IMG/VR virus record: IMGVR_UViG_3300032144_000010
Length of the DNA stretch: 63,186 bases
Strand: one strand, 5' to 3'
From: a virus
Shown here: one piece after another, positions 16,923-27,736 of the stretch
How positions within the stretch are numbered: position 1 is the first letter of the stretch
Layout: the number at the start of each line of letters is the position of its first letter
Made by a program: the position numbers and the translations under genes
The notes under the pieces: model-generated
Databases searched by the model: none
The model's input: the letters and a program-made list of their open reading frames with translations, nothing else
Told to the model about the DNA's origin: nothing

Positions 16923-17188
16923 TGGACGCGGGGAGTAAGGCCGCTGCGGTGTCATCGCCGCCCGTGGAGGCGTACAAGAGCGTGGAGCGCATGGTGAAGA
17001 CCGTGCGCATCGTGGTGCGCAACGTCTACGGCCAGCTGGTGTGCTACCCGGCCTGCGAGCGCGCGGACCTGTTCGCCGAGATCGCAGGCACGCGCACGCT
17101 CTCGCACCGTACCCTCGCTCTGGCCGAGCGGCTGGGCTACACGATCCACAACGACACACCTGTCATCGACTGGAGAAAAGCACGATGA
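16922..17188 (+). CDS. hypothetical protein (88 aa) between the ATPase and VWA genes
   Basis: ORF with start and stop overlaps to both neighbours. Confidence 0.55.
   Translation: MDAGSKAAAVSSPPVEAYKSVERMVKTVRIVVRNVYGQLVCYPACERADLFAEIAGTRTLSHRTLALAERLGYTIHNDTPVIDWRKAR
16945..16955 (+). repeat. copy of 11-mer TGCGGTGTCAT
   Basis: ggccgcTGCGGTGTCATcgccgcc; in frame A-V-S. Confidence 0.9.
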
Positions 17189-18432
17189 ACAAGACCCTGA
17201 TGGCAATGAGCGTTGCCGGTTCCACCGTGGACCCCAACGCTCCCCCGGACAGTTACAGCCTGACGCGCAGCCCCGGCATGGTGGAGGCCCTGAGCCGCCT
17301 CATGCTCACGCAGCCGTTCTTCGCGAGCCTGCTGCACTGGCTGAAGCTGTACCAGACCGACAGCCCGGCGATCCCGACGGCGGCCACCGACGGCTACAGC
17401 ATGTGGTACAACGCGCCGTGGTACGACGCGCTCCCGCTCGACGAACGTGTTGGCGTGCTGGCGCACGAACTGCTCCACGTCATGTTCGACCACATGGGAC
17501 GCAGCGCTGCCTATCAGGATCAGGGCATCGGCCCCGACTTCAAGCCGTGGGAACACGACCGCTACAACGTGGCGGCGGACTACGTCATCAACTCCATTTT
17601 GCAGGCCGGAAGTATCCGGCTCCCGAAGTCAGCGTTGCTGGACCCGAAAATAGCAACGCCCGACGATCAGGCGGACGACGTGTACTGCAAGGTCCCCAGC
17701 CCGCCCAAGCGCGGCGGAGGCGGTCACGGTGGCTTCGACAGGCACCTGCGCCCGCCGCCGACCCAGCGCCCGCGCAACCCGGCTGCCGTGAAGGCAGACG
17801 TGGCTGGCGCACGGCAAGCTGCGAGAGAAGCTGGCAACATGCCCGCCGCACTCGACCGTATCATCGGCGACCTGCTCGAACCGGTGATCCCGTGGCCCGA
17901 GAAGCTGCGCGAGTTTTGGGTGCGGGAGACCATCGGCAGGGACACGCAGACCTACAAGCGGCTGAACCGCCGCTGGCTCACGCGGTTCCCGTCGCTGCCG
18001 CTCATCTACCCCGGTCGCATGGGCTTCGCTCCTGTGGACGTGGTCGTGCAGATCGACACCAGCGGCTCCATCGGCGAGAAAGAAGTCACGAACTTCCTGA
18101 CCGAAGTGGCTGGCATCATGCGCGATGCGATGCCCGAGAACCTGCACATCCTGTGGGTGGACGCTGAAGTCGCAGGGACCGACCATCTCACGCACAACGA
18201 CAGCCCGGAGATTCTCCGCACGCTGAAGGCGAAGGGCGGCGGTGGCACGGACATGCGCGAGGGGTTCCTGTGGATCGACGAGAACCTCCAGCAGCGCGAC
18301 ATCGTGCACATCATCATGACCGACTGCTACACGCCATGGCCTGACGAAGCGCCCGAGTGGCCGGTATTCGTGCTGTCCACGACCGACGCCGAGTCGCCCG
18401 AGTGGGCACGCAGGGAGAACTACAACCAGTGA
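17185..18432 (+). CDS. zincin-like metallopeptidase + VWA domain protein (DUF2201-type partner of the AAA+ ATPase)
   Basis: HExxH in LAHELLHVMFDH. MIDAS-like VQIDTSGS ... GGGTD ... IMTDCY. ATG at 17185 follows ggagaaaag and forms an ATGA overlap. The ORF track opens at 17041. Confidence 0.8.
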   Translation: MNKTLMAMSVAGSTVDPNAPPDSYSLTRSPGMVEALSRLMLTQPFFASLLHWLKLYQTDSPAIPTAATDGYSMWYNAPWYDALPLDERVGVLAHELLHVMFDHMGRSAAYQDQGIGPDFKPWEHDRYNVAADYVINSILQAGSIRLPKSALLDPKIATPDDQADDVYCKVPSPPKRGGGGHGGFDRHLRPPPTQRPRNPAAVKADVAGARQAAREAGNMPAALDRIIGDLLEPVIPWPEKLREFWVRETIGRDTQTYKRLNRRWLTRFPSLPLIYPGRMGFAPVDVVVQIDTSGSIGEKEVTNFLTEVAGIMRDAMPENLHILWVDAEVAGTDHLTHNDSPEILRTLKAKGGGGTDMREGFLWIDENLQQRDIVHIIMTDCYTPWPDEAPEWPVFVLSTTDAESPEWARRENYNQ

Positions 18433-22140: not shown

Positions 22141-22526
22141 ACACCGAGGAAGCCGACCTGACGGTGCTGCTTCAGGCAGCATGGACGCGGCACATGATCG
22201 ACAAGTACCACGTCCCGCTGGCAAAAGCCCGGCTCGCTGCCGGGCACCTGACCAAGGGCATCGTGCTGCGCCGTGGCGCGAAAGTCGTTCAAGTGGACTT
22301 CGTGTTCCGTCGCCTCGACCGAGCGTACACGTTCCAGAGAGAGGTTGGTGGATGGATACACGACGACGTCATCGTGGGGCTTAACGCTGCGGTGTCATCC
22401 ATCGCCGACGACATCCTGACTGGAGCCATATTGGCCGTTGACCAAGCGCCGCCGCCCGGCGAGGACGAGGAAACGCACAGCGTCAAGTGGTATCTGGAAC
22501 AAACCGAGAAGCTGGCAGCCCTGTGA
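22137..22526 (+). CDS. hypothetical protein (~129 aa)
   Basis: ATGA overlap at 22137-22140. Confidence 0.55.
   Translation: MNTEEADLTVLLQAAWTRHMIDKYHVPLAKARLAAGHLTKGIVLRRGAKVVQVDFVFRRLDRAYTFQREVGGWIHDDVIVGLNAAVSSIADDILTGAILAVDQAPPPGEDEETHSVKWYLEQTEKLAAL
22388..22398 (+). repeat. copy of 11-mer TGCGGTGTCAT
   Basis: taacgcTGCGGTGTCATccatcg; in frame A-V-S. Confidence 0.9.
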
Positions 22527-22882
22527 CCGACTTCACCACGATGATGCGCTCGACGGCCACGGTCGTCATCAGCAAGACCCTGTCCTGTTCGCTGGACCAA
22601 GCGCACGCGCTCGCGGGCCGCATCCATCGACTGGAGTACACGCACCCGGTATTCCACGGGCCGCGCAACTTCAAATGCGCGCTGTACATCAACGACAGCA
22701 ACGACAGCAACGACAGCAACGGCAGCAGAAGCCTGTCCCTGTATGAATTCGTGCACGAACTGAAACCGGGCGAGTTCTCGGAGTATTCCGCATGTCAGAT
22801 GCCAGCGATGCGCAAGCTCGTCGTCGCGCGCTCACTCTTTCACAGTTTGGACCAAGTACGTTGGCTCAGTCTGTTTCTATGA
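22523..22882 (+). CDS. paralog-family member A (C-terminal ...SLDQVRWLSLFL)
   Basis: GTGA overlap at 22523. It carries an in-frame (NDS)n repeat and the family C-terminal motif. Confidence 0.55.
   Translation: MTDFTTMMRSTATVVISKTLSCSLDQAHALAGRIHRLEYTHPVFHGPRNFKCALYINDSNDSNDSNGSRSLSLYEFVHELKPGEFSEYSACQMPAMRKLVVARSLFHSLDQVRWLSLFL
22691..22726 (+). repeat. 9-bp tandem repeat aacgacagc x3 plus aacggcagc
   Basis: Read directly; encodes NDSNDSNDSNGS. Confidence 0.9.
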
Positions 22883-23205
22883 CCAACAAACTCTCGCAGG
22901 AACACATCACGCACATAGCTCGCGCGCAGCTGAATCAACTGTTGCTGCGCGAAGGCTACACGCTGGTGCAGCGCCAGAAGATCGGCGAAAGCATGGTCAG
23001 CGTAGTGATGGATGACAACCCGTTCGACTACTCGGCGATGGTGAAGATGGTATTCACGATTGGCGGCAAGACGCAGCGGTTCAACTACGAAGTGGGTCGT
23101 CAGTCTCCTACCGCGCTGAGTCAGCGCGAAGGCCGGGCTACTTCGCTGATTACTGAGGCACTCGAAAGCATGGACAAGCTGGTATGGCTGACAATCGCAA
23201 GCTAG
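22879..23205 (+). CDS. paralog-family member B (C-terminal ...SMDKLVWLTIAS)
   Basis: ATGA overlap at 22879. The ORF track opens at 22792. Confidence 0.55.
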   Translation: MTNKLSQEHITHIARAQLNQLLLREGYTLVQRQKIGESMVSVVMDDNPFDYSAMVKMVFTIGGKTQRFNYEVGRQSPTALSQREGRATSLITEALESMDKLVWLTIAS

Positions 23206-23501
23206 TCGAGTGTGCGCAGCGCCGCTTCGTGCGCAGGCTGGTGCGCGAGTTCGGCATGACGTACCCGGAGACGCACATCGTCAAGAACCTGACGAACGTG
23301 ATCCTTGAGCGGCACCACAACAACGGTGGGCGCGGGGCGGTTCATTTCTACGGGCGAGATGTTACGCCTTCCGTGAGCGTGCGCATGCAGCTGCAAGGCT
23401 CGGACGTGTACAGCATCCAGACGCGTGTCGTATCCAACCTCGTGAAGCGCGCCGTGGACTCGCTGGATGTTCTCCAGATCGGAATTCTGCTCAGTGAATG
23501 A
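23184..23501 (+). CDS. paralog-family member C (divergent C-terminus ...VDSLDVLQIGILLSE)
   Basis: Same size and helix/strand/helix layout as its neighbours. Confidence 0.5.
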   Translation: MADNRKLVECAQRRFVRRLVREFGMTYPETHIVKNLTNVILERHHNNGGRGAVHFYGRDVTPSVSVRMQLQGSDVYSIQTRVVSNLVKRAVDSLDVLQIGILLSE

Positions 23502-23736
23502 ATTCAAAGCCGAGCCCGGCGACATCGTGGAGAGCTTCGGTATCTATGCCGTATTCGAGGGCTACCACGAACGCGACATCGCGCACATCTACGCACGCGA
23601 CAACTTCAGAGGCGTAGTCCTGTGCGCATTGGAGACTGGCTCGCTTACTATTCCTATCTGGCGGAAGGTCCACCCCGACGAAGAAGGCAACGTGCCGCCA
23701 ATCCTAGTGATGCTGTCCAAGGCGATGAAGTCATGA
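23467..23736 (+). CDS. hypothetical protein (start 23467 ATG or 23494 GTG)
   Basis: ORF inside the paralog array, without the family motif. Confidence 0.5.
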   Translation: MFSRSEFCSVNEFKAEPGDIVESFGIYAVFEGYHERDIAHIYARDNFRGVVLCALETGSLTIPIWRKVHPDEEGNVPPILVMLSKAMKS

Positions 23737-24011
23737 GCGTGTACACCGACGAGTTCGGCGACAGCATTCGCCCCGGCATGTTGCTGCACCACATGGGCAT
23801 CTGGCTGGTCACGATCAATCGCGACCACAGCAAGGAATACGCCGACGAGAAGCGCTGGTACTGCTGCATCCACAATCACGGCAAGGGACCGGACACCTAC
23901 GTGCTGCCCGTACCGCAGGACGTGCTGCTCGACCTGATGGTGCGCTCGCGCCCGGAGGACGACAAAGCACCGCCCGCGCTGCAAATGCTGGCGACGGTGC
24001 TTCGCCGATGA
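23733..24011 (+). CDS. hypothetical protein (92 aa)
   Basis: ATGA overlap at 23733. Confidence 0.5.
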   Translation: MSVYTDEFGDSIRPGMLLHHMGIWLVTINRDHSKEYADEKRWYCCIHNHGKGPDTYVLPVPQDVLLDLMVRSRPEDDKAPPALQMLATVLRR

Positions 24012-24379
24012 CCAAGCGCACGAAGAAGCTCGCGCGCCAAGCGCGGAAGAAAGCCGTAACCGGCAAGGGCAGCCACGCGCGGGCAACCAAGACCGTCGCG
24101 CCGAACCTCACCACGGCGCGCGCACTGATCGTGGAGAAGATGCGCAACTGGTACGATCTGGAAAAGACGCTGTGCATCCGTGTCTCCAACATGCTCACCG
24201 ACGTGTCGATTGGACGCGACTGGCAGACCGGAGAGACGCAGGCCGAGTTCATGTTCGTTGGCTTCGGTGTCATCTGCGTCGTGCTGGACGGCATGCACAA
24301 CCTGTCCACGGCGCTGAGCAGCATCGACGAACTGGTGTGGGCGTTGTTGATCGCTGAAGCGAAGGCTGCGGTGTCATGA
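24008..24379 (+). CDS. paralog-family member F (…SSIDELVWALLIAEAKAAVS)
   Basis: ATGA overlap at 24008, with a basic N-terminus. Confidence 0.55.
   Translation: MTKRTKKLARQARKKAVTGKGSHARATKTVAPNLTTARALIVEKMRNWYDLEKTLCIRVSNMLTDVSIGRDWQTGETQAEFMFVGFGVICVVLDGMHNLSTALSSIDELVWALLIAEAKAAVS
24367..24377 (+). repeat. copy of 11-mer TGCGGTGTCAT spanning a stop/start junction
   Basis: gaaggcTGCGGTGTCATgagcg. Confidence 0.9.
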
Positions 24380-24702
24380 GCGAGGAAGTGAGCCAGCTGG
24401 AATACGCGCGCAGCGCGATCTTCTTCATGCTGTACTCCGAGAGACAGCTGGAGCGCAAGCAGGCGCGTCGCGCGGCTGAACGGCTATTGGGCATCGAGGC
24501 TTCGTACAACAGGCGCAGGCAGCAGTACATGGTCCGGCTGACGTTCGCGGGGCTGCCTCGTTCCATCGAGTCGTTCCACGATATGTCGAGCATGTACACC
24601 GGCTTGGACGCCAAGACCAAGGGGCTCAACGCCGAGCAGGGGATGATCTACCGTGCCATTCACCTTGTGGACCCGATGCTATGGATCGCGATAGCCGCAT
24701 AG
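24376..24702 (+). CDS. paralog-family member G (…HLVDPMLWIAIAA)
   Basis: ATGA overlap at 24376. Confidence 0.55.
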   Translation: MSEEVSQLEYARSAIFFMLYSERQLERKQARRAAERLLGIEASYNRRRQQYMVRLTFAGLPRSIESFHDMSSMYTGLDAKTKGLNAEQGMIYRAIHLVDPMLWIAIAA

Positions 24703-25025
24703 TTTTCAGCGCAAACGAAGACACAGTTCGCTCGCTGATGCGCGGCATGGACCTCCCGGACAACATCCCGAGCATGATGCGCAAGAACGCTTCGCGCTCG
24801 CTGAACAGCGTGGAGATCACGGTGCCCAACGACGGGCACTCGTTGCGCCGCGCGACGATAACGCTCATATTCAAGAACCCGGACTTCAGCGTGATCGCCC
24901 ACCACGGCGTGGCGATGAAACACGAGAACGGGCGCTGGGCCATCGTCCGTGAAGACCACGACCTCTGCCTGCGCGCCGCTGTGCGCGCCATCGACCCGCT
25001 GGTGTGGGGAATCCTCAGTGCCTGA
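24681..25025 (+). CDS. paralog-family member H (…RAIDPLVWGILSA)
   Basis: ORF with the family C-terminal motif. Confidence 0.55.
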   Translation: MDRDSRIVFSANEDTVRSLMRGMDLPDNIPSMMRKNASRSLNSVEITVPNDGHSLRRATITLIFKNPDFSVIAHHGVAMKHENGRWAIVREDHDLCLRAAVRAIDPLVWGILSA

Positions 25026-25368
25026 CCTGAAAGGAACGCGCGGAGTGAATCGCAGGGTGCTGATGCTGCTGCACGAAACCAAGAGTGTCCTCGAACTGCG
25101 CTGCTCGCTGATCCGCCCGCAGTGTTCGCGCCACACGCTGGTGGACCGGCTCGATGGCATCGAAGTCGCTGGCGACACGGGCGACTGGCTGGTGGTGCCG
25201 AAGGTCACGCTGCTGTTCGTCGATCTCGATGGGAACATCTTCCACGCGCCTGTTGTGCCGGAATACTCGCAGTGGTACTTGAAGGCGCTGCTCGGCGGGC
25301 ACGCATCCACGCCACCATGCCCGCTCGCTGAAGACCAAATACTAGGGCTGCTGCTGCACTATGGCTAA
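25018..25368 (+). CDS. hypothetical protein (GTG start; uncertain)
   Basis: In-frame GTG at 25018 just before the upstream stop. The ORF track opens at 24949. Confidence 0.45.
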   Translation: MPDLKGTRGVNRRVLMLLHETKSVLELRCSLIRPQCSRHTLVDRLDGIEVAGDTGDWLVVPKVTLLFVDLDGNIFHAPVVPEYSQWYLKALLGGHASTPPCPLAEDQILGLLLHYG

Positions 25369-25681
25369 CGATGAGCGCGACGACACGCTGAAGCAACAGC
25401 ACATTCGCGCAGCGTTCGAGTCGCAGCTGTTTCGCCATCGCCGCGACACGCTGGCGACAAGCAACGTGTGGGAACCGACCTACCGCGTGGCGATGGTCTA
25501 CAAGTACCCGGTGACGGGGCCGGAGGGCAACGGCGTCTGGCTGCTGTTCGACCACGGCTACAAAGCTCCTACCACGGAGAAGTTCGCAAGATGGTTCAAC
25601 GAGCGCGGCGACGTCCTGCCGCCCCCGCCGCTCGATGACCCGACGATCAGTGCGCTACTACTCAAATTTGGTGTACGCTAA
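25361..25681 (+). CDS. hypothetical protein (106 aa)
   Basis: ORF in the co-directional array. Confidence 0.55.
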   Translation: MANDERDDTLKQQHIRAAFESQLFRHRRDTLATSNVWEPTYRVAMVYKYPVTGPEGNGVWLLFDHGYKAPTTEKFARWFNERGDVLPPPPLDDPTISALLLKFGVR

Positions 25682-25685
25682 GAGC

Positions 25686-25889
25686 ATGTTCACCTACGAA
25701 GCCTCTCCGAACAGCGCCGTGACCCGAGATGCTATGGCTAGCTTCTGGCTCCAGCGCTACTGCGCGCGCGTGGACGTGGCCCGTTCGATCATGCACAATT
25801 CTGGCGTACCGTTCCCGGCCGCCATGGAAGCCGCCGAGGGCGTGATGAACCAGCAGTTCAACCAGTGGCTGTCGCAGGGCAAGCTGTGA
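25686..25889 (+). CDS. hypothetical protein (67 aa)
   Basis: ATG at 25686, 5 nt after the upstream stop. Confidence 0.5.
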   Translation: MFTYEASPNSAVTRDAMASFWLQRYCARVDVARSIMHNSGVPFPAAMEAAEGVMNQQFNQWLSQGKL

Positions 25890-27736
25890 AGACGATCACC
25901 GTCGATTTCGAGAGCTTCTGGTCGCAGGACTACACGCTGTCCAAGATGACGACGCAGGAGTACGTGCGCGACCCGCGCTTCCAGCTGATCGGCATGGGCT
26001 TCGCTGTTGGCAACGACCGCCCGCGCTACGTGAGCGGCCCCACCGACGTGATGCTGGCTGCGGCCGCGCTGCCATGGAGCGAGTCCGTCGTGATCGCGCA
26101 CAACGCGCAGTTCGATGGCGCGATACTCGAATGGCTGATCGGCTTCCACGCGCGCACCTACTTCTGCACGATGCAGGCAGCGAACGCGTGCGTAAAGCCA
26201 TGGACAGGTTCAGCATCGTTGGCCTCGTGCGCAACGTACTTCAACCTGCCAGAGAAGATGACCGGCATCCTGCAAGCCACGCGCGGGCTGCGCCACGAGC
26301 AGCTGACGCTGGAGCAACGGCGCGCGATGGCGGAATACTGCAAGCACGACGTGATGATTACGCGCGAATTGTTCCAGCGCATGCGCGACAAATTCAACGA
26401 AGACGAGACAGACCTGATCGACCTCACGATCAAGAAATACGTCCGGCCTAAAATCGTCCTGTCGCGCAAGCGCATCAAGGAAGCGCAATACGAACTGGAA
26501 CAGCGGCGCACCGCCCTGCTGACACAGCTGGGCGACGAGAAGTGGGCCAGCGCGACGATCTCCAGCAACGAGAAATTCGCCGAAGCGCTGCGTGCGCTCG
26601 GCGTCGAGCCGCCGATGAAAGTCAGCGGACGCACAGGCCAACAAACGTATGCGTTCGCCAAGACCGATCCTGATTTTCTTGAGCTACAGGAACACGATGA
26701 TCCCGACGTGCAGACGCTGGTGAACGTGCGCATCGGCGCGAAGTCCACGCTGGAGGAATCGCGACTGGAGAAGTTCCTGCGCATCGCCGACATCGACCCG
26801 GACCAGAAGCTCGCCGTGCCGCTCACCTACTACGGCGCGGGCACCGGGCGCATGAGCGCGCGCGACGGAATCAACCTACAGAACCTCACGAAGAAGTCGC
26901 CGATACGCGACTGCCTCACCGCGCCGCCCGGCTACAAGGTCGTGACGGCTGACCTCTCGCAGATCGAAGCACGCGTGCTGGCATGCATTGCGGGGCAGGA
27001 CGACCTTCTCGAAGAATTCGCTACTGGGGCCGACCCCTACTCGTCCTTTGCTACGGACCTGTACGGTGTGCCCGTCTCCAAGGAGGAGAACACGGACCTG
27101 CGTGACGTGGGCAAAGCAGCGATTCTCCAGCTTGGCTTCTACGCAGGCGTGAGCGGCTTCGACCGCTACTTGAAGACCAAAGCCAACAACCCGCAGCCGC
27201 TCGATGAAGTGGAGCGCATCGTCAACGCCTACCGTCGCCGGTACGGCCACATAGCCAAGCTGTGGAAGTGGATGGAGAAAACCGCCACGCCGGTCATCCT
27301 CGGCACGAACGGCGGCGCTACATGCGCGATTGCCAACTGCGTCTATTCCACCCATCAGCTGACGCTGCCTAACGGCATGCCGATCTACTATCCGCACGCG
27401 CGCCGGCAGCTGAACGGCGACGTGATCTACGACTCGTTCCGTGGCAAGAGCGGAGCCGTCAAGGAGGTAAAGCTATGGCCGGGCCTGCTGACCGAGAACA
27501 TCGTGCAAGCGCTGGCGAGGATCATCCTCTCGACCGCCGAAGTGAGTCTGGCACGCGCCGGGCTGCTCGCGGCCTTGCAGGTACACGACGAACTGGTATT
27601 CATCGTGAAGGAAGCGGCGGTGCGTGCGGTGTCATTGGCGCTGCGCCGGGCGATGACCCAGCGTGTTTCATGGATGCCGAATCTTCCCTTGGCATGCGAC
27701 ATCAAGGTAGGGAACACCTACAAGGAGGCAAAGTGA
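25886..27736 (+). CDS. family A DNA polymerase with 3'-5' exonuclease domain
   Basis: Exo motifs DFESFW, AHNAQFDGAIL and YCKHDVMITRELF. Pol motif A VVTADLSQIEARVLA, motif B RDVGKAAILQLGFYAG, motif C LQVHDELVF. GTGA overlap at 25886. Confidence 0.92.
   Translation: MKTITVDFESFWSQDYTLSKMTTQEYVRDPRFQLIGMGFAVGNDRPRYVSGPTDVMLAAAALPWSESVVIAHNAQFDGAILEWLIGFHARTYFCTMQAANACVKPWTGSASLASCATYFNLPEKMTGILQATRGLRHEQLTLEQRRAMAEYCKHDVMITRELFQRMRDKFNEDETDLIDLTIKKYVRPKIVLSRKRIKEAQYELEQRRTALLTQLGDEKWASATISSNEKFAEALRALGVEPPMKVSGRTGQQTYAFAKTDPDFLELQEHDDPDVQTLVNVRIGAKSTLEESRLEKFLRIADIDPDQKLAVPLTYYGAGTGRMSARDGINLQNLTKKSPIRDCLTAPPGYKVVTADLSQIEARVLACIAGQDDLLEEFATGADPYSSFATDLYGVPVSKEENTDLRDVGKAAILQLGFYAGVSGFDRYLKTKANNPQPLDEVERIVNAYRRRYGHIAKLWKWMEKTATPVILGTNGGATCAIANCVYSTHQLTLPNGMPIYYPHARRQLNGDVIYDSFRGKSGAVKEVKLWPGLLTENIVQALARIILSTAEVSLARAGLLAALQVHDELVFIVKEAAVRAVSLALRRAMTQRVSWMPNLPLACDIKVGNTYKEAK
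27625..27635 (+). repeat. copy of 11-mer TGCGGTGTCAT
   Basis: ggtgcgTGCGGTGTCATtggcg; in frame A-V-S. Confidence 0.9.

Follow-up and report, generated by a model that had tools for sequence, protein, structure and literature searches.

What are the six small genes that lie in tandem at positions 22523-25025 of the viral contig IMGVR_UViG_3300032144_000010, and what is meant by the similar way in which their products end? The window analysed here is the whole 63,186-bp JGI/IMG contig of this IMG/VR record. An initial annotation had described the genes as a family of strongly diverged proteins with a common C-terminal motif, h-D-x-L-x-W-h-x-I (h, hydrophobic residue; x, any residue). We found all six open reading frames (ORFs), here called A to F, at the coordinates listed in Table 1, all on the plus strand; they match existing gene calls, and their C-terminal endings read as the annotation had quoted them. 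For B to F a public protein collection has exactly matching gene calls, each a singleton cluster at 90% identity, and A is likewise called, with a 119-residue product (P0009). The third-position guanine-plus-cytosine (GC) content of the six is 0.75-0.85, as expected for genuine genes in this genome, and the same gene string is present in a second assembly (Logan, SRR9694912). Judged by sequence comparison, A to F are a genuine tandem paralog family whose motif goes beyond chance. With slightly better than even confidence, we favour a lineage-specific family of small proteins that would have been born by local duplication, with the tail serving packing, oligomerisation or contact with a partner, and the proteins acting by binding rather than catalysis.

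The shared element is A-h-x-x-h-D-x-L-x-W-h-x-h-x-x-COOH. Alignment on the Asp extends it beyond the motif first described, to [LM]-x-x-x-A-[LIV]-x-x-h-D-x-[LMV]-x-W-h-x-h. A, B, E and F end exactly five residues past the Trp. D carries an eight-residue extension after the motif, AEAKAAVS, and C has Ile at the Trp position. The membership pattern, h-D-x-[LMV]-x-W-h-x-h in the last 6-13 residues with A-h-x-x-h before it, is found in B, D, E and F, and also in a protein from another contig, P0010 (see below).

Hydrophobic C-terminal helices are common, and the motif might be one of these, recurring by chance with no family behind it. The best spaced-dyad statistic for the last 16 residues, that of D-x3-W, was equalled in none of 5000 whole-protein shuffles and in 1/5000 shuffles confined to the last 30 residues. 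We then scored the tails with an anchored 11-column position-specific scoring matrix (PSSM), trained on B, D, E, F and P0010, using 1962 ORFs as controls. When each of these five sequences was left out in turn, the scores were 15.7-24.6 bits (B 18.8, D 15.7, E 17.4 and F 17.6), and none of the 1962 controls scored as high. A scored 8.3 bits, a value reached by 4/1962 controls (p≈0.002), and C 6.4 bits (22/1962, p≈0.011). A hidden Markov model of the tail, trained on the family itself, was run against 3,410 six-frame ORFs from the window and 26 related loci; it gave 27-33 bits for A to F and 6.5 bits for the next best ORF. What speaks for chance is that HMMER, in a leave-one-out test with a 25-column model, ranked B, D and F first but missed A, C and E, and that pairwise BLAST E-values are weak (0.02-0.1). 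Nevertheless, the chance reading is scarcely credible because it is contradicted by the shuffle tests, by the anchored PSSM and by a profile alignment of B with E (E 1e-5); moreover, all members are adjacent. On these scores B, D, E and F belong securely to the family, A is a probable member and C a possible one, the weakest of the six, which we include mainly because of its adjacency and the D.L..GIL string that it has in common with F. The proposal of a tandem family with a shared tail therefore stands up robustly for B, D, E and F, and more weakly for A and C.

Single-sequence searches of large protein collections covered B and F. A phmmer search of 1.84 billion representatives with B returned one true homologue, P0010 (109 residues, 40% identity, E 7e-17), encoded on a single 2,519-bp JGI contig. 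P0010 retains the tail and ends in TALEYIDPLLWITLAA. Three much longer proteins made of tandem repeats, P0011, P0012 and P0013 (1,470-1,694 residues, E 1e-6 to 3e-4), were rejected as homologues of B, their matches being repeat artefacts in which five to six weak stretches are summed. Against 5.8 billion proteins, the six-member profile and F alone found only self matches, and a profile of B and P0010 found only self matches and P0010. There was no match in IMG/VR scans with P0010, B+P0010, E or D, in a tblastn search of phages with P0010, in a blastn search of INPHARED phages with the 21-28 kb region, or with the family profile in the records behind three related loci (L005, L010 and L026). 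The best hits in Pfam-A (E 0.12) and PHROGs v4 (E 0.04) were below the cut-off and gave no family match, PADLOC-DB gave no match, and neither did the PDB sequences when searched with the B+P0010 profile (best E 0.13). On these searches the family appears nearly unique, having been found in this phage and in one metagenomic homologue. The initial annotation had not recognised it, and the searches of Pfam, PHROGs, PADLOC and PDB sequences agree; its own proviso, that a profile search might reveal a chance helix without a family, is answered by a family that exists but is tiny.

Outside the tail the proteins have indeed diverged strongly. Similarity detected by pairwise BLAST and Smith-Waterman comparison is confined to the last ~15-20 residues, and once the tails are removed no A-F pair rises above z=1.84 relative to shuffles. 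The divergence among the paralogs has reached saturation. An hhalign comparison of the B+P0010 profile with E produced 81 colinear columns (82.6% probability, E 9.6e-6), and B and E are of equal length. The B profile matched D (46%, E 2e-4, 17 columns) and F (E 6e-4, 19 columns) in the tail only; the match to A was likewise restricted to the tail and amounted to essentially nothing (E 0.09), and C gave no tail match. We also compared 19 small proteins of this arm of the genome all against all with hhalign (170 comparisons, noise level ~13-16 score units). The top pairs were within B/D/E/F (D-F scored 23.1), together with the pair formed by G and y1, two genes downstream of the array.

In the main rival reading, the conserved end would be a modular, detachable address or docking peptide on unrelated bodies, which would bring all of them to one hub, be it a pocket on a host or phage protein, a protease (as a degron) or a compartment; the proteins would then form a family only by virtue of this tag. 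C-terminal peptides of this kind include the β-clamp hexapeptide QLxLxL/F, ssrA-like LAA degrons and encapsulin cargo-loading peptides; like them, the array tail is a short hydrophobic extreme C-terminus common to otherwise different proteins. The bodies of A, C, D and F resemble neither B/E nor each other, four of the six tails stop at the same distance from the Trp, and E and P0010 finish with IAA/LAA, reminiscent of how the ssrA tag ends. In position and hydrophobic spacing, the final six residues, W-[LIG]-x-[LI]-x-x-COOH, resemble the C-terminal clamp-binding hexapeptides. However, the hallmark Gln of the clamp-binding pattern (Gln at position 1, then L-x-L-x-[LF]) is missing from all six proteins, which have Trp there (Ile in C), and only A continues with LSLF. 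The [LI]AA ending occurs in just two of seven proteins. If the motif were a general address signal, other proteins of the phage should bear it too, but in the family-trained profile search no other phage ORF, large proteins included, does so. Furthermore, B and E are full-length homologues, and conservation reaches ~10 residues upstream into the preceding helix, exceeding the need of a short linear motif. Thus, we consider an address tag on unrelated bodies unlikely. Still less probable, it seems, is a reading in which D-P-L-x-W-h-x-h-x-x-COOH serves as a docking peptide for a hydrophobic pocket on a single host hub protein, the bodies being diversified cargo, in the manner of peptides binding the sliding clamp or partners of the FtsZ tail. 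If this were true, the phage would possess a modular recruitment system beside its replication genes.

The gene overlaps suggest how the array came about. The A/B and D/E overlaps are 4 nucleotides (ATGA), and the B/C and E/F overlaps are 22 nucleotides. The ATG of C (23184-23186) is built from GTA-TGG in the motif of B and the ATG of F (24681-24683) from CTA-TGG in the motif of E, while the ATG of x1 (23467-23469), the gene following C, sits in CTG-GAT-G of the motif of C. GTA and CTA are rare in this genome, accounting for 10% of Val codons and 3.7% of Leu codons, respectively. Because the overlap geometry repeats, with the next start made from a rare GTA or CTA codon, it is fairly probable that E-F arose as a duplicate of at least a B-C segment; perhaps the unit was A-B-C, giving D-E-F. 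The N-termini of C (MADNRKLV) and F (MDRDSRIV) are also alike, as both starts are embedded in the upstream motif.

Such junctions could mean that what is conserved is nucleotide or RNA sequence, namely a gene-junction element (a start context, a weak Shine-Dalgarno sequence or a recombination boundary) that is translated incidentally. Three of the six motif copies (B, E and C) hold the ATG of the next gene, with GGAC 8-9 nucleotides ahead of it. There is also a precedent in L003, L005 and L009, three loci with distantly related polymerases, where tandem small genes upstream of the polymerase (at 1090-2910 of L009 and 3879-4543 of L005, and also in L003) have common C-termini (AIRARGDT, KLKEKNT) and no Pfam family match. 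In L009 and L005 the shared end is plainly a conserved DNA junction, the nearly identical gccatccgagcaaggggggacacaTGA, consisting of a Shine-Dalgarno sequence and an ATGA overlap (aagggggg/aaggag, then acacaTGA), which is reused at each gene boundary. These arrays resemble ours in occupying the same genome slot and in having variable bodies, conserved last ~8-10 residues and ATGA overlaps. They differ in that their common ends are a near-identical DNA junction coding a Shine-Dalgarno sequence, whereas the window conserves residues, not bases; the motifs are unrelated. The copies of our motif use different codons at the conserved hydrophobic positions (TTG/ATG/CTG/ATC/GTG), the next start lies anywhere from within the motif to ~50 nucleotides away, and A, D and F have no nearby start. 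We found no DNA similarity between the copies or between the two halves of the array, and P0010, from outside the window, keeps the residues. Because the motif codons vary and the array halves lack DNA similarity, selection appears to be acting on the protein, and the conservation is, by this comparison of codons, at the protein level; a junction element translated by accident is very improbable.

Returning to the family of binding proteins that we favour, the six genes would encode small (105-123 residues) soluble accessory proteins outside the known enzyme families. Local duplication within a variable phage slot would have created them, at least one step probably copying a multi-gene segment. 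Selection on the protein would keep the helix (A-h-x-x-h), the Asp (often Asp-Pro) as a break or N-cap, and the short, very hydrophobic segment containing the Trp. The tail may provide a common packing, oligomerisation or partner-contact surface, and the divergent bodies may give each paralog its own binding specificity. Proteins of this sort would work as binders of host or phage macromolecules and not as catalysts, which fits accessory, host-directed roles. The net charges of A to F are +1, +1, +5, +7, +3 and +1, that is, neutral to basic, and none of the six has the strongly acidic character of DNA-mimic anti-restriction proteins such as Ocr or ArdA. Past its last charged residue, each of the six has a hydrophobic stretch of 5-12 residues, too short to span a membrane, for which ~18 or more uncharged residues would be needed. 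A Pfam scan of the ten small genes at 22.5-25.7 kb, which included no dedicated anti-defence library, detected no Pfam domain of any kind, helix-turn-helix included. Taken together, our analyses of the array revealed no toxin, anti-CRISPR, DNA-mimic or helix-turn-helix feature and no relatives of known function. The host-takeover or anti-defence role put forward in the initial annotation is a generic reading, plausible but neither favoured nor disfavoured by these results.

Several observations weigh against a family of paralogous binding proteins. Only B and E are detectably similar outside the tail, with no body-wide similarity for A, C, D and F. The syntenic pairs (A-D and C-F) are measurably no closer than non-syntenic pairs, and so the case for a cassette duplication is made by the overlap geometry and the B-E similarity. 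Structure prediction was uninformative: AlphaFold models calculated with the six-paralog alignment are of low confidence (predicted local distance difference test scores of 55.9 for B and 55.1 for F), and the best Foldseek hit for the F model had E 0.26. The layout of N-terminal helix, β-rich middle and C-terminal helix described in the initial annotation is accordingly a tentative one. The one feature consistent between the two low-confidence models, which speaks for the proposed tail shape, is a helix followed by a break at the Asp and then a short last helix.

The array fills a slot between a MoxR-ATPase/VWA-metallopeptidase module and the DNA polymerase, which in the window comprises ~7.4 kb of small genes. 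Its genes are co-directional and lie just upstream of the replication genes, and almost all neighbouring genes overlap, by 4-35 nucleotides. The stretch at 19-28.5 kb showed no sigma-70-like promoter, and its terminator-like sites are at background level only. Because nearly all of the genes overlap, the block is probably expressed as one translationally coupled unit with the replication genes. The lower GC content noted by eye for part of the block proved marginal, at 0.596-0.598 for 22-24 kb compared to 0.62-0.63 on both flanks. Further genes on the plus strand were identified by Pfam as a PD-(D/E)XK nuclease, a SNF2 helicase and a DUF927 primase-helicase; a 2,681-residue protein containing LPD39 is encoded on the minus strand.

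The DNA polymerase has relatives in IMG/VR, JGI metagenomes and GTDB genomes that reach no more than 43% identity, and their flanks contain no copy of the motif. Among cultured phages, Rhizobium phage RHph_TM3_14A and Pseudomonas phage KPP25 are the closest, each with 34% polymerase identity. In RHph_TM3_14A (MN988472.1, 25630-39537; our locus L028) the order is ATPase, metallopeptidase, two genes, DNA polymerase, RecB-type nuclease, VRR-NUC and SNF2 helicase. This module order is common to the window, and since RHph_TM3_14A has just two genes in the slot, the slot is expanded in the window.

Small-gene arrays of this sort are ordinary in phage variable regions. In T4-type phages, small ORFan genes fill the hyperplastic regions (Arbiol et al. 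2010, PMC2839356; Comeau et al. 2014, PMC4122927). Like these regions, our array consists of co-directional small genes of unassigned function between core modules, in a slot that is expanded relative to RHph_TM3_14A. Unlike them, it contains paralogs and not unrelated insertions, and it has no flanking DNA repeat, promoter-like or terminator-like element, whereas the T4-type regions are shuffled by means of repeated promoter/stem-loop DNA cassettes. Host-takeover and early modules, such as genes 37-60 of Bacillus phage SPO1 or the class I genes of T7, encode many small proteins and have defined early promoters. The array is similar in comprising many small proteins without enzyme motifs, which would be transcribed ahead of or with the replication genes. 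It differs in that its members share a tail, whereas the early proteins are mostly unrelated.

Should the paralogs indeed interact through this common tail surface, the array would offer a compact natural case of one anchor with many specificities in a phage accessory region, from which new small binders of host proteins could be drawn. It is also one more orphan paralog family among the many phage genes still uncharacterised, and a neat example of overlapping coding, in which a conserved Trp or Asp codon, by way of rare codons, takes in the start codon of the next gene.

Table 1. Genes of the array and its surroundings in the 63,186-bp window (aa, amino acid residues; nt, nucleotides).
Gene	Coordinates	Strand	Length	Protein	C-terminal tail	Motif position	Remarks
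A	22523..22882	+	119 aa		SLDQVRWLSLFL	22844-22876	GTG start; 4-nt overlap with upstream stop
B	22879..23205	+	108 aa	P0001	SMDKLVWLTIAS	23167-23199	
C	23184..23501	+	105 aa	P0002	SLDVLQIGILLSE	23460-23492	Trp replaced by Ile
x1	23467..23736	+	89 aa	P0003	VPPILVMLSKAMKS		interrupting gene, outside family
x2	23733..24011	+	92 aa	P0004	APPALQMLATVLRR		interrupting gene, outside family
D	24008..24379	+	123 aa	P0005		24320-24352	motif SIDELVWALLI; basic N-terminal tail
E	24376..24702	+	108 aa	P0006	LVDPMLWIAIAA	24664-24696	
F	24681..25025	+	114 aa	P0007	AIDPLVWGILSA	24987-25019	
G	25045..25368	+	107 aa		PPCPLAEDQILGLLLHYG		gene call in Logan contig
y1	25361..25681	+	106 aa	P0008	PPPPLDDPTISALLLKFGVR		
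DUF2201 metallopeptidase/VWA protein	17041-18432	+					Pfam
Family A DNA polymerase	25865-27736	+					Pfam

The two small genes between C and D, x1 and x2, interrupt the array, as had been noted before, and gave no PSSM match. They have a common tail of their own, PP-x-L-x-M-L, and were weakly colinear in hhalign (score 15.7 over 68 columns, which is at noise level), and they look like a weak tandem pair. G and y1, just downstream of F, share the string PPxPL..D..I..LLL..G (hhalign score 21.9, 39 columns) and look like a second additional tandem pair within the block. Their ends are faintly motif-like, with PSSM scores of 4.0 bits for G (59/1962 controls) and 4.9 bits for y1 (36/1962). On these similarities, G and y1 are possible remote relatives of the family tail and paralogs of each other.

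Two local repeats were also seen. In A, a 9-bp tandem repeat at 22691-22726 encodes NDSNDSNDSNGS, as read from the translation only. A strand-specific 11-mer, TGCGGTGTCAT, occurs in two copies in or near the array. The copy at 24367-24377 comprises the last codons of D, encoding the AAVS at the end of its eight-residue extension, and the ATG of E; the copy at 22388-22398 lies inside the gene upstream of A and also translates as AAVS.

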